From positions 1 through 64,000 of IMG/VR virus record IMGVR_UViG_3300047472_000155: a stretch of DNA of 64,000 nucleotides. One strand, 5' to 3'. The translations under genes and the position numbers were made by a program. The notes under the pieces were generated by a model. That model was not told the DNA's origin, made no database searches, and saw nothing but the letters and a program-made list of their open reading frames with translations. The first letter of the stretch is position 1, and each line of letters opens with the position of its first letter. The stretch comes from a virus. Shown in pieces: positions 7,801-35,979 of the stretch.

Positions 7801-10800
7801 GGAGAGCAGTTATGGATTCTGTCGTATCATCAGCATCTTTTCCAACATTCTCTAATGCTTCTGCTCCAAGTTCTGCCTGAGTTTTTAAATCGTCAAGGAC
7901 TTGAACAAAATCTTTAAGATTCTTGCCATCTTCTTGAAGACTCTCAACAAGATCGCCTTCGCCCATTTGACGAGCTAAATAAATCATTTGTGCTGTTTTA
8001 ATGTTGATAGTATCGAGAGCAGCACCTACATCATTTATAGCATTTACTTCTATGCCATAAGCGGTCAATTTTGCAACCAATGCAGAGTTTTGATTTAAAA
8101 CACTTTGCCATTGTGCAGTACCTTCATCTTTTACAGCTTGAATCATGGTATCACGTTTTTTTACAATAGCTTGTGTGTTTAATTTAACAACACCATTTTC
8201 AATTTTGAATAAACTAATAAGAGATGCATCTTTAGCAATCAAGTCCATAACTGCATCAGCACTTATTTGTTTGCCATTTGCATTATCTTCTAAAAATCCA
8301 TTAAGCGTTGAAACAGTATCGGAAGTATCACTGTAACTATCATTCAAAGCCTTTAATGCTGTAGCGAATGATTCAAGGTTTGTTCCAGAGTCTGCAAGTT
8401 CATCGTTTAATGCGGCAAATAGAGGTGTTCCACCTTCTACAGCTTCAACAATTCTTCTAATTGCATCAGTTCCTAAATTCAACGTTTTTCCATATGAGTT
8501 ATAAACAGCATCTTGTTTCTCTACTGTTGTCATATTTTTAACTTGTGCACTATTGAGGTCTTCTATCATAGATTCGAAAACTTGGAAGTTTTTAGTATTA
8601 AATTCTACGCCATTGTCAAAAAAGAATGATTTCAATTCCTCAGTAGAATGAATTCCAACTTTTTCAAGACTATCCAAAGATTTTTCCAGAAAAGAAACTT
8701 GACTGTCGAAATCTGCAAAGTCCATTTGACCAATAACATTTGTAAGAGACTCAGCGAACGCACGTTGTTCGTTTGTTACAGTTTTTCCTGCTTCTTGGAG
8801 TCTTTCAGTATATTCATTTTTGATAGCATTAATTCTATCAGCAGTAAGTGCATCTAATTCTGTTTTACTCTTTTCAAGCTCAGTTTCTACTGCAACTTTA
8901 GCTTTATTTATTTCTTCAATATCAGTTTTAATTTCTACTGCTTTTGTCTCGCCAAATGAAGTTGGTACATTTACTACTCTCGTGTTTGTTTTTCCGTCTA
9001 AATAGTCTTGTTCTTGTTTTTGTAAATCCAACAATGCCTTTTGATTTTCTTCATATGCTTTTGCCTTATTTTCTATTTTTTCAGACTTATCTGTATATGT
9101 AGAAATTACCTTAGATTTATTAAGGTCATTTTGAATCTTAATCAAATCACTAAGTATATCTATTCTATCCTGAATAGCATCTTGGCTGTTTACATATGCA
9201 TTACCCTCTGCGTCAACTCCGGTAGCAGTAACTCCATAATTTTTAACAAGTTCATTCTGAATTTCAAGCAATCTATTTTTTTGTTCGATTGATTTATCTT
9301 CAGTAGCCATAAGCGTATTGTATTCATCGTTTAATGCCTCAATGCCACTTTTTTGTTCCTTGTAAGAGTCTCTAAGAGTGTAATTTACAGTCTTAAGTTC
9401 TTTTATTTTTTCATTATGTTTTTGAACTGCCTCAGTTATCTTTTGAATAACAAGACCTACCGCCATTAATGCTAACATTGGACCTATTGTAGCCAGCGCT
9501 ATGCCAAGACCTTTTGCAGAAACCTTTAAAACATTCATAGCTCCAGCAGTTGTTTTCATTCCAAGTGCAGCCTCTTTAAGTCTAAGTGCAAGGAATTGTG
9601 TTTCATATGAAACCTTTTTGAATAATGCTACACTAGGGATGAAAGATGCATACATTCTTCTTGCGGCACCACTTAATATAAGTGCAGCAGTTGTAGCTAC
9701 ACCAATGACAACGGGGAATATTCCAATAGTTTTTACGACAGCATTTACAGCAGTTCCTAATGTTGTCAATGCATCAATAAGACTTCTTATTCCATTTGAA
9801 TCAAATGAAGACTGGAATATTTCATTCCAAGCATTTTTCATTCTTGTTAAATGGGCTTCTGTTCCTTCTTGATATCTATTGAATTTCTCTTGTGCTATAC
9901 CAGCAGAATCAAGAGATGCTTCATATAACTTAACAGAATCTGGATATCCTTCCATGATGTTTAAAAAACGTGATTGCTGATATGAACCAGCAACAGTTGT
10001 TGCAATGTACGCTTGTTGTCTATTACTTAATGTAGTCCATTTAGCACCTAGTTCGTCCATTACTGTACCAAAGTTACGGAATTCACCTTGTGAATCAACA
10101 AGTTGTATTCCAACCTTTGCCAATGCTTTTGCTACTTGGTTTACTTGTGTTCCATCTTCTTGATCAAACCCATTTTCTTTCAAAGATTGCACACGTGCCA
10201 TGATTGACTTAACTGAGCTACCAATTGTCTCAGCACTTTCACGTGTTCTTGATGAAATTGTCGCAATCCATGAAGAAACCTTTTCAAACTCAAGTCCAAT
10301 TGCTCCAGCAGTACCACCAACTTTTTGCATTGCACGACCAATTTCATCGGCACCAGTAGCTGTTGCATCACCCATGTATGAGTAAATATCCGCAGCATGT
10401 TCAGCACTTACACCCATTGAGTTTACCGTAGCTGTAAGAATTTGAGCTGATTGTATGAAATCTAAATTTGAAATTTTGGCATAAATGGTAGCAGTTTTCA
10501 TTTTATCCATCATTTCTGCACCCTTTAAGCCTTGACGAGCAAATTCAACTGCTCCATTTGCAATTTCTTCTGTAGAAACGCTCATTTGCATTCCAAGATC
10601 ATAGAATTGTTTAGCGTATTTTTCTACATCAGATTGACTCTCATTGAATACGATAGAAAGCTGCGTTAATGCCTTATTGAATTCGTTTACATATGCTACT
10701 CCATTTGTGAAGAAGTGTAACGATTGATAGAATGCGGTCATACCAATCATCCACACTGGTATTCTTGACATAGCCGTTTTCAATTGATCCATAAAGCTCA

Positions 10801-28210: not shown

Positions 28211-28456
28211 GTGTTTTGTAATCGCTTACAATAGCTTGTATTTGAATATATTTTAAAATAATAAATAAAAAAATTGCGTCTTATACTCTGTTTACATTTT
28301 TACGTAGGTGAGAAATTTGTACTACTGTCACTTTTTTGGACATTTGTACAAATCTACGTTGTATTCGTTCTCACGCGAACTACTCAATGTAAACATAATA
28401 TAAGACGCAATTCATGTATTGACTTTGGTAGAGTCAATACATATGTTATTTCCCAA

Positions 28457-28611: not shown

Positions 28612-28726
28612 AGCGGAAACTAGGAATCGAACCTAGATCATGTTTGGTATCGTGTAAATGGGTGCTGCCGCTACCCACTATACCACGCCCCTGGAGGGGG
28701 ATGTCCTGCCATTAGACGATTTCCGC
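28612..28726 (-). tRNA. Atypical tRNA-Gly-like RNA with ~45-nt extra arm
   Basis: Acceptor GCGGAAA/TTTCCGC plus U73; normal D and T arms; distorted CCCC-CTCCA-GGGG arm; long inserted hairpin. Confidence 0.7.
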
Positions 28727-29007: not shown

Positions 29008-29292
29008 TCATTTCCAATAATATGTTTTGTACCAATAACGCATTGCTTGATGGAAAGGTCTGTCTTTAATCCATAACCAACGATGTACATCATGTCGATG
29101 TTCCCATCGTTTAAGGAAACTTTTTTTGCTTTGTGTGTACTTAAAATCAGAGATGTCATATGAATTATAAAACTTACGATATGCCTTACCATTTGGAACA
29201 TCTTTACTTCTTCTTACCTTGTGATTGGCAAACTTTTTGCCTCCCACTCTTCGATCCTTTACAATAGGTGTCTTCTTGAAACTTCTACTCAT
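29008..29292 (-). CDS. Basic, aromatic-rich hypothetical protein
   Basis: 94 aa MSRSFKKTP..., RBS AAGGAG; promoter at 29370-29398. Confidence 0.7.
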   Translation of the reverse strand: MSRSFKKTPIVKDRRVGGKKFANHKVRRSKDVPNGKAYRKFYNSYDISDFKYTQSKKSFLKRWEHRHDVHRWLWIKDRPFHQAMRYWYKTYYWK

Positions 29293-29416
29293 ATTCTACA
29301 ACTCCTTTCGGTAATTATAGAACGTTAAATGAAATTTTCATTTCCTCACCTCTTCTTGACTATAATAGTATTATATCATTTTATATTTAATTTGTCAAGC
29401 TTTTTCTTTAATAAAA

Positions 29417-29489
29417 TAGGACTACTGAGATTCGAACTCAGAATGACGGATTAAAAGTCCGCTGTGATAAACCATTTCACCATAATCCC
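29417..29489 (-). tRNA. tRNA-Lys(TTT)
   Basis: GCGGA-CTTTTAA-TCCGT. Confidence 0.9.
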
Positions 29490-29492
29490 ATA

Positions 29493-29602
29493 TGGTAGTA
29501 GGTTCAGGTCTCGACCCTGCTTCTCTTTGTCAACTTTTACACTCTCATCTAGAATTGAACATAGAGTATTGACAAGTGTTTTATCCGATAAACTAACCTA
29601 CT
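29493..29602 (-). ncRNA. tRNA-like RNA with anticodon loop replaced by an extended hairpin
   Basis: Acceptor AGTAGGT/ACCTACT plus encoded ACCA; D arm GTTT/AAAC; T arm CAGG-GTCGAGA-CCTG; ~35 extra nt in the anticodon arm. Confidence 0.7.
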
Positions 29603-29957
29603 ATAACTTTTGGTTCCTCAACGGAGAACCACTCCGATCCTTTTTTTAAGATTTAGGATGAAACTTAAAACAAGCAACAATAGGTGTGACCTACTAAGAA
29701 TGAAGAAGTGACACGCAAAGCGTTTGTCTGCATCTTTTAATCATTCTCAAACTCATAGTTAGAAGCTTGATATTAATTTTATGTTATACTTGTTAATAAA
29801 TGAGAGAGGGGAAAGGAAATCGTTTCCCTTCTGAGAGGAGGGAACCCCTCTCTCATTTCACCACCGGAATGTGATTATTGAAATAGTCATTGACTACTAT
29901 CTCAACTAAAATAAATATTATCACATTTCTTTTCTATTGTAAACACATTTTTTTAAT

Positions 29958-30031: not shown

Positions 30032-30039
30032 ATATTAAG

Positions 30040-30115
30040 CGCCCCAAGTTGGACTGGAACCAACAAGCTCTCCCCGCTAATGGGAAGCGACTTTACCATC
30101 TTTGTCTATTGAGGC
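30040..30115 (-). tRNA. Atypical tRNA, undetermined anticodon (8-nt loop CATTAGCG)
   Basis: Acceptor GCCTCAA/TTGGGGC, D and T stems intact; T loop TTCCAGT; stem CTTCC/GGGAG. Confidence 0.6.
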
Positions 30116-30117
30116 GA

Positions 30118-30194
30118 TGGCTCAGACTATTGGACTTGCACCAATGTCATCTCCTCATGCGGGAGATTATTCTAGCTAGTTGAACTAAGTCTGA
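30118..30194 (-). tRNA. Atypical tRNA with 6-bp anticodon stem and CAT-centred loop
   Basis: Acceptor TCAGACT/AGTCTGA plus GCCA; ATCTCC-CGCATGA-GGAGAT; T loop TGCAAGT. Confidence 0.6.
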
Positions 30195-31346: not shown

Positions 31347-31400
31347 AAGTGTTTGATCTATAGTACTCATTATACCATTTTATCTTTCATTTGTCAACAG

Positions 31401-34218: not shown

Positions 34219-34290
34219 AGCGGATAACGAGACTCGAACTCGCAACCTTTTGGGTGGAAGCCAAACGCTCTACCATTGAGCTATATCCGC
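34219..34290 (-). tRNA. tRNA-Gly(TCC)
   Basis: TTTGG-CTTCCAC-CCAAA; GCG/CGC acceptor, U73. Confidence 0.92.
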
Positions 34291-35880: not shown

Positions 35881-35979
35881 AGGTGACGGAAGGAATTGAA
35901 CCTCCAAACTACTCTACCTGAGTTGTTAGCGGATTTGAACCGCCGTGTTCGTGTGCACCGAACTGCAACCAGCATCACC
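35881..35979 (-). tRNA. Atypical 99-nt tRNA (CAA loop, enlarged D region and variable arm)
   Basis: Acceptor GGTGATG/CGTCACC, U73; GGCGG-TTCAAAT-CCGCT; T arm GGAGG-TTCAATT-CCTTC. Confidence 0.65.

Follow-up and report, generated by a model that had tools for sequence, protein, structure and literature searches.

A long-armed tRNA-like gene conserved in the tRNA arrays of uncultured SPbeta-like phages

Directly upstream of a tRNA-Lys gene, in the tRNA array of an uncultured phage, there is a stretch of DNA that has the acceptor stem, the D arm and the T arm of a tRNA and a long irregular hairpin in the place of the anticodon arm. Is this a dead tRNA gene, a tRNA interrupted by an intron, or a gene for an RNA that keeps the shape of a tRNA and does not decode? 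The whole stretch of DNA that was analysed, which we call the window, is 64,000 nucleotides long. It corresponds to the first 64 kb of a viral record of 166,838 bp (33.7% G+C) that is rated as complete.

The genes of this phage include NrdD/NrdG, PhoH, an exonuclease and a terminase-like protein. In related contigs the orthologous neighbours belong to the YonK, YonG, YonD, YonB, YomX and YomW Pfam families, and therefore we regard it as an uncultured SPbeta-like phage with a Bacillota-type host. Named phages are distant relatives only, with exonucleases less than 40% identical in amino acids. Regarding the array itself, ARAGORN called 22 tRNA genes, all of them on the minus strand between positions 28456 and 39171. 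Several of the other tRNAs have odd loops, and apart from the element only tRNA-Gln and tRNA-Trp have an encoded CCA in the array of the window. The element lies in this polycistronic array about 330 nt downstream of the nearest promoter-like site and behind a structured leader; to judge from its sequence, this site could drive the element together with tRNA-Lys (Table 1).

The sequence-only reading of this locus had described a perfect 7-bp acceptor stem with ACCA, a D arm and a T arm, and all of them were confirmed on the minus strand. The seven acceptor pairs are perfect, with an optional eighth pair U8-A99. The acceptor stem is followed by U8 and A9, A26 stands between the D stem and the long arm, and the variable region between the long arm and the T arm has 4 nt. 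Going outwards along the long arm, a 9-bp proximal helix, from which one A bulges, is separated by a 4x3 internal loop (ACUC/AAA) from a 7-bp distal helix, and a terminal loop of 12 nt closes the arm. The minimum free energy fold reproduces the same cloverleaf, and the stability of the single-sequence fold is unremarkable (z -1.49). Reading the sequence, we found the bases of the tertiary pairs of a tRNA, namely U8, A14, G18, G19, A21, U55, C56 and A58. The assignment of core and elbow contacts rests on textbook tRNA structure, and the bases concerned are U8-A14, G18/G19 with U55/C56, G10-C25-G45, A9-A23-U12 and G53-C61. Self-complementary 6-mers (UCUAGA, ACAUGU) occur in the terminal loops, that of the window copy included, and we discarded them as a dimerisation signal because 23-29% of shuffled loops have one, so their presence is not significant.

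Table 1. Positions in the window of the element, of its parts and of its nearest neighbours
Feature	Positions	Strand	Pairing partner, basis or remark
Whole tRNA-like gene ('family B'), 110 nt including ACCA	29493..29602	-	Read from 29602 to 29493
Acceptor stem, 5' strand AGUAGGU	29596..29602	-	Pairs with 29497-29503
Acceptor stem, 3' strand ACCUACU	29497..29503	-	Pairs with 29596-29602
D arm, stem GUUU/AAAC (4 bp), 8-nt loop AUCGGAUA with G18 G19	29578..29593	-	Sequence
52-nt long arm in the position of the anticodon arm	29525..29576	-	RNAalifold consensus and pair counts
Proximal helix, 5' strand CUUGUCAAU	29568..29576	-	Pairs with 29525-29534
Proximal helix, 3' strand GUUGACAA-A-G, bulged A	29525..29534	-	Pair counts
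Conserved distal helix, 5' strand UAUGUUC	29557..29563	-	Pairs with 29538-29544
Conserved distal helix, 3' strand GAGUGUA	29538..29544	-	Pair counts
Terminal loop AAUUCUAGAUGA, 12 nt (15 nt in the homologues)	29545..29556	-	RNAalifold consensus
T arm GCAGG-GUCGAGA-CCUGA; G49-A65 unpaired, G at 54	29504..29520	-	Sequence and homologues
Discriminator A73 (3/3 members) and encoded CCA (window copy only)	29493..29496	-	Sequence
tRNA-Lys(UUU)	29416..29490	-	2 nt 3' of the element; ARAGORN and Rfam
Nearest upstream promoter-like site TTTACA-17-TAATAT with TG	29915..29943	-	Consensus match only

We scanned the genome with a strict frame made of a 7-bp acceptor stem, a D arm with GG and a T arm of the form G.TCRA..C, within a length of 60-140 and with the middle unconstrained. 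There were 11 matches genome-wide (166,838 bp), all 11 in the minus-strand array and the element among them, and 40 random Markov-1 genomes gave a mean of 0.05 matches. The tRNA frame of the element is real and tRNA-derived, and chance is excluded.

The element has in common with canonical tRNAs (RF00005) the acceptor stem, U8, the D arm with G18 and G19, a class I variable region, the T arm and A73, and furthermore the position in a tRNA array and the spacing to the next tRNA. The canonical T-arm features U55, C56, A58 and G53-C61 are all there; the homologues described below are canonical in this arm, and the window copy has G54 and an unpaired 49-65. However, canonical tRNAs have a 5-bp anticodon stem and a 7-nt loop with U33, and in the element and its homologues a two-helix arm of 52-58 nt stands instead. 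The earlier statement that no 7-nt anticodon loop is closed was thus right, since the window copy has an irregular hairpin of 52 nt there. ARAGORN in default mode did not call the element, and RF00005 (gathering score 29 bits) gave no match over 29493-29602 even at E<=10, nor did it match the homologues. Therefore, the element is truly without an anticodon stem-loop, and with an arm of about 16 bp and no 7-nt loop the RNA cannot read a codon.

Two other assignments were tried and rejected. The 5' and 3' ends of YrlA RNAs lie in the Ro-binding stem and not in an acceptor stem, whereas the ends of the element form a tRNA acceptor stem; the YrlA family RF02553 has no match on the element, and nearby it reaches 16-22 bits against a gathering score of 69, which is chance level. 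We also looked for descent from a particular tRNA. The comparison of frames with 165 tRNAs of related arrays and the R1/R2 matches gave generic likeness only, the best matches being tRNA-Ala, a CUA tRNA and tRNA-Pro at about 40 bits, and no ancestor can be named.

The sequence-only reading had named a lack of conservation as a finding that would speak against it, and conservation was in fact found, in two diverged homologues with compensating pairs. Further contigs were collected through protein look-ups with the 94-aa ORF adjoining tRNA-Lys, followed by a single-sequence covariance model. One of them, from another sample, has an identical copy of the element (L021:915-1024). The diverged homologues are L019:2428-2542 (63 bits, E 1e-12), with 70% identity to the window copy, and L057:521-636 (54 bits, E 2e-11), with 64% identity. 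The contigs that carry them come from related uncultured SPbeta-like phages. Thus, three distinct members are known, those of the window, L019 and L057. In all three the element occupies the same slot, directly upstream of tRNA-Lys, with a gap of 2 nt in the window and 1 nt in L019 and L057, and all three have a U at position -1. The encoded CCA that had been reported is present in the window copy and is no feature of the family, because the 3' end of both homologues reads A-GCC without an encoded CCA. Similarly, the degenerate T loop GTCGAGA is correct for the window copy and private to it, the homologues having the T loops UUCGAUA and UUCGAAA on a 5-bp T stem. Actually, of the three members it is the window copy that has degenerated most: its T arm has G54 and the 49-65 mismatch, and in its distal helix three G-U pairs follow each other.

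The element is not found everywhere in this clade. The sole close relative in IMG/VR (G001, a complete phage of 170.6 kb with an exonuclease 81-83% identical) is without the element in a precise manner, as the upstream spacer is joined directly to tRNA-Lys. It is also absent from L020, L036, L039 and G004, where tRNA-Gln abuts tRNA-Lys or the order of the genes differs. The flanks of the carrier L057 and of the non-carrier G001 are 93-95% identical, and this near identity means that the gain or loss of the element was recent there. The element is accessory and dispensable, missing as it is from a complete phage and from most of the related arrays. Scans of IMG/VR and of the GTDB genomes with exact and degenerate patterns for more members of the family gave chance matches only, the collection of isolated phages gave no match to the element, and scans of metagenomes and genomes with the neighbouring exonuclease gave no close relatives; the look-ups with the 94-aa ORF were the one route by which members came to light.

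We tested the structure on the three-sequence alignment with RNAalifold and pair counts, using shuffles (n=500) and registers slid by 1-3 columns as controls. In the consensus, the acceptor stem has 7 bp, the D stem 4, the proximal helix 9 plus the bulged A, the distal helix 7 and the T stem 5; the 4x3 loop reads ACUC or ACUA opposite AAA, and the terminal loop has 12-15 nt. Pairing is kept in 96.9% of the 96 pair cells, with an overall identity of only 64-70%. In 11 pairs both sides had changed; the shuffles gave 4.3 +/- 1.6 such pairs, with none of them reaching 11 (0/500), and the slid registers gave 0-2. The acceptor stem accounts for 4 of these changes and the T stem for 3, and the proximal and distal helices have 2 each. 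Such compensating changes in the alignment indicate selection on structure, here an L-shaped fold in which one arm is much lengthened, and the covariation rests on few events because there are only three distinct members. Furthermore, ten of the cells are G-U pairs, so the fold is specific to the tRNA-sense (minus) strand.

The helices do not evolve in the same way. In the acceptor stem 4 of the 7 pairs changed on both sides and any two members are identical at only 7-8 of 14 positions (50-57%), yet the pairing holds, in 95% of the cells. The T stem of the window copy has 3 of 10 positions identical to either homologue and it still pairs. On the other hand, the D stem is invariant (8/8 positions identical) and the internal loop nearly so (7-8/8), and in the proximal helix 12-16 of 18 positions agree, with a U-G pair kept in 3/3 members. 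Judging from the alignment, the acceptor and T stems drift freely as long as they pair, and it is in the D arm, the internal loop and most of the long arm that the letters themselves are conserved.

Regarding the distal part of the long arm, the helix TACTCT/AGAGTG that had been proposed at first did not hold for the family. It pairs only in the window copy (72% of the cells across the homologues), whereas UAUGUUC/GAGUGUA is kept in 3/3 members with 21 of 21 cells paired (100%), 2 pairs having changed on both sides and 2 through G-U. In the window copy the alternative helix is 1.6 kcal/mol more stable than the conserved one, and therefore both distal helices may form there.

Because the structure is kept with compensating changes in three diverged phages, the element probably works as a tRNA mimic, rather than being the remains of a tRNA gene. 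The reading that we favour, and that we consider rather probable from the sequence comparisons, is that selection maintains the element as a true gene, whose RNA derives from a tRNA and mimics one without decoding; the top half of this RNA would be a generic handle and the long arm the specific part. It would be transcribed along with the other genes of the array and would share a dimeric precursor with tRNA-Lys. RNase P would free the 5' end, in keeping with the U at -1 in the three members. In the window copy the 3' end would be freed by the RNase P cut of tRNA-Lys and subsequent trimming to the encoded CCA, and in the homologues without CCA the 3' end would be made by RNase Z, followed by CCA addition. 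The tRNA top half may then serve as a generic handle for proteins that process or bind tRNAs, and the long arm may be the specific working part. Most likely, as far as the sequence allows us to say, the partner of the RNA is a factor recognising the elbow and the acceptor end of tRNAs, which the RNA would bind or titrate or which would act on it. This factor could be of the host or of the phage, for instance a tRNA-targeting defence enzyme. Identity marks that act independently of the anticodon are G3-U70 and a long variable arm. The element has neither of them, so aminoacylation is unlikely; the pair 3-70 is U-A, G-C and G-C in the three members, that is, the alanine identity pair is absent from all of them.

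Other explanations have to be weighed against this one. The element might be a decaying tRNA pseudogene, functionless and being lost after a hairpin-forming insertion in the anticodon arm. This would agree with its absence from a phage about 94% identical in the flanks to a carrier and from most related arrays, with the degenerate T loop and T-stem mismatch of the window copy, with the odd loops in several other tRNAs of the array and with the lack of an Rfam match. However, a pseudogene at 64-70% identity should lose its pairing, and here 97% of the cells are paired, 11 pairs have been replaced on both sides and hardly anything has changed in the D arm and the internal loop. Moreover, the long arm, including the distal helix, is conserved with compensation, which means that it is not a private insertion, and thus we hold decay to be unlikely. 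Alternatively, the element could act only as a processing signal, as the plant mitochondrial t-elements or mascRNA do, recruiting RNase P or RNase Z for the ends or the stability of its neighbours, the released RNA being inert. The polycistronic array, the distance of 2 nt to tRNA-Lys and the place some 330 nt past a promoter-like site and a structured leader would suit such a signal, the acceptor and T stems would need only to pair, and RNase P substrates of such a kind are known (PMC11143913, PMC1920247). Nevertheless, tRNA-Lys brings an RNase P site of its own and, in G001, L020 and L039, matures with no element next to it, and a signal leaves it unexplained why the D arm, the internal loop and the long arm are conserved in sequence; we give this explanation a small chance.

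That the gene is a tRNA with an intron, spliced to a canonical product of about 75 nt, seems very improbable. When introns are allowed, ARAGORN does return a model for the window copy, Arg(tct) with a 16-nt intron and a 21-nt extra arm, but the models for the three members are unrelated to one another (Arg tct, Phe gaa and Asn att), and with three different anticodons no spliced canonical tRNA is conserved. We also rejected the spliced reading by hand, since no excision from the sequence leaves a 5-bp stem and a 7-nt loop with U33. It had been noted that neither a self-splicing intron nor a bulge-helix-bulge is apparent, and we came to the same result. There are only the 4x3 internal loop, whose sides lie directly opposite each other, and one bulged A, instead of two 3-nt bulges on opposite strands 4 bp apart; inside the element, whose insert has about 35-40 nt, no group I or group II intron family of Rfam matches. 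The likeness to the tRNA-like domain of tmRNA that had been put forward could not be upheld. Both have an acceptor and T-arm module, a long helix replacing the anticodon arm and no anticodon decoding, and A73 would also fit a charged domain that enters the ribosome with SmpB in trans-translation. However, tmRNA has no D stem, about 360 nt, an mRNA part and pseudoknots, whereas the element has a full D stem and about 110 nt, without G3-U70, tag reading frame or pseudoknot, and the tmRNA searches of ARAGORN and Rfam were empty, which makes a tmRNA-like role very unlikely. The last candidate is a unit that does not work through the minus-strand RNA, either a protein-binding inverted repeat (TTGTCAA/TTGACAA) or a promoter-like site on the plus strand that gives a short antisense RNA. 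The plus-strand site TTGTCA-17-TAGAAT (29527-29555) scores 10/12 and a terminator-like hairpin lies downstream (29622-29646). Against it, ten G-U cells pair only on the minus strand, compensation in the acceptor and T stems has no meaning for DNA, and in the sequences of L019 and L057 the -10 box is lost or the spacing is about 20 nt, L019 also being without the hairpin. As neither the internal promoter nor the upstream terminator-like hairpin is kept in the homologues, we discarded the antisense unit, and the chances of this group of explanations as a whole are very slight.

The element is accompanied by other long tRNA-like genes in these arrays. Directly after tRNA-Gln there are long-armed genes of about 106 nt (L001:8468-8575, L019:2316-2421 and L057:236-343), which we call family A. 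They are carried by G001, L019 and L057 and share 96% identity among these three phages, above that of their tRNAs. Their acceptor stem is GAGUCUU/AAGACUC, the central arm of about 55 nt has three helices and the T loop is UUUAAGU or UUUGAAU. Family A has no match in Rfam and no copy in the genome of the window. A Gly-like tRNA of 115 nt at 28612-28726 (-) matches the Rfam tRNA family with 39.5 bits and has a G+C-rich extra arm of about 45 nt and a distorted anticodon arm, CCCC-CUCCA-GGGG. L021 has an identical copy, and the copy at L019:3499-3603 is 84% identical and has an extra arm of another build, whereas the gene is cleanly missing in G001; an ordinary tRNA-Gly(UCC) is also encoded, at 34219-34290. 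Beyond the weak tRNA match of the Gly-like gene, none of the three (family A, the Gly-like gene and family B, as we call the element) has an Rfam family, and the isolated phages had no match to them. As family A and the Gly-like gene are also conserved, embellished tRNA-like genes are a maintained feature of this phage clade. A bolder proposal is that these at least three long-armed mimic families are RNA factors for anti-defence or take-over, the top half leading them to a host enzyme and the sequence-conserved long arm blocking or trapping it. The target would recognise the tRNA elbow or the acceptor end, as a tRNA-cleaving or CCA-modifying immune effector might, and the presence or absence of the genes between near-identical phages would mirror the defence repertoire of the hosts. 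We consider this doubtful.

Some further genes of tRNA shape were observed. Two of them have off-consensus T loops, at 30120-30194 (-), with UGCAAGU, and at 30039-30115 (-), with UUCCAGU. The former is not called by ARAGORN in the window and is kept in G001 (L011:8775-8849) and in L057 (81-155, Rfam tRNA 33 bits). At 35881-35979 (-) there is a tRNA-like stretch of 99 nt with a 7-bp acceptor stem and two hairpins that resemble T arms, GCGG-UUCAAAU-CCGC and GGAGG-UUCAAUU-CCUUC, which no tool calls as a tRNA. In an unrelated viral contig, 80 nt before a tRNA-Gln, L059:4046-4129 resembles a tRNA over 84 nt; it shares the D arm GUUU...AAAC, the region of its anticodon arm is oversized, and it is not called by ARAGORN either. 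Suppressor-looking tRNAs with a CUA anticodon, and one with UCA, occur in relatives (L013:8737-8812 and 9739-9812, L020:7503-7578, L036:4759-4832 and L039:1977-2052), and in the genome of the window ARAGORN found no tRNA with either anticodon.

Two perfect sigma-A-type consensus promoters (TTGACA-17-TATAAT with TG) lie within the array, at 29370-29398 (-) and 31369-31397 (-), the former straight after tRNA-Lys and ahead of the 94-aa ORF (29008-29292). G000, G001 and L057 share a hairpin, AAAAAGGAUCGGAGUGGYUCUCCGUUGAG (29616-29650 of the window), which lies immediately upstream of the element or of tRNA-Lys; read on the plus strand, the hairpin resembles an intrinsic terminator (stem 29622-29636 and then a T run), and the genes nearby are all on the minus strand. 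A longer hairpin follows the promoter-like site 29943-29915, at 29798-29858 (-), with a perfect 14-bp outer stem AAAUGAGAGAGGGG/CCCCUCUCUCAUUU around further small helices. It sits in a 355-nt stretch without ORFs, in the place of family A between tRNA-Gln and the element, and from its sequence it could be another small structured RNA or a terminator.

What do these results add? Family B would be a new family, with three members, among the tRNA-like stable RNAs of phage tRNA clusters, which are a known kind. The contrast between a tRNA handle that drifts freely, formed by the acceptor and T stems, and a long arm that is conserved in sequence provides a hypothesis on which part works specifically, and the natural variants with and without the element among near-identical phages make a functional test straightforward. 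Since the standard tRNA finders and Rfam miss the element, similar phage genes are probably under-counted. If such RNAs were shown to act against tRNA-targeting immunity, they would represent RNA anti-defence factors of a new type.

Finally, we compared the element with known RNAs. The YrlA module, mascRNA, the plant t-elements and tRNA-Other are non-decoding RNAs of tRNA shape that are handled by tRNA enzymes. Among them, the tRNA-Other of Bacillus cereus is a tRNA mimic (PMC3399842), and the t-elements have been described as well (PMC1920247). However, tRNA-Other keeps a normal anticodon arm and the element does not. By analogy, the closest known kind is that of RNAC (species 1) and RNAD (species 2) of phage T4, small stable RNAs inside the phage tRNA cluster that adjoin a tRNA gene and have had no assigned role for around 50 years (PMC3014915). 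There are clear differences, as T4 RNAC has 139 nt, a 46-nt 5' extension and no clear D arm, and the hosts of T4 are Enterobacteria, as opposed to the Bacillota-type SPbeta-like phages of the element. The two have no sequence homology, the 22 bits of covariance model R2 coming from the tRNA top half alone. Nevertheless, the 3' domain of T4 rnaC has, according to the sequence of the T4 locus, a 7-bp acceptor-like helix (CGGAACG/CGUUUCG) and a canonical T arm (CCGGG-UUCGAAU-CCCGG), as the element does, and in the position of the anticodon arm there are likewise long hairpins. The element agrees with RNAC and RNAD in position and shape, as a non-tRNA RNA gene in a phage tRNA cluster with tRNA-like terminal helices. 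On this comparison it is a likeness of kind and not a homology family, in which a phage clade unrelated to T4 also keeps extra RNAs in its tRNA cluster, with a clean architecture and compensating changes.
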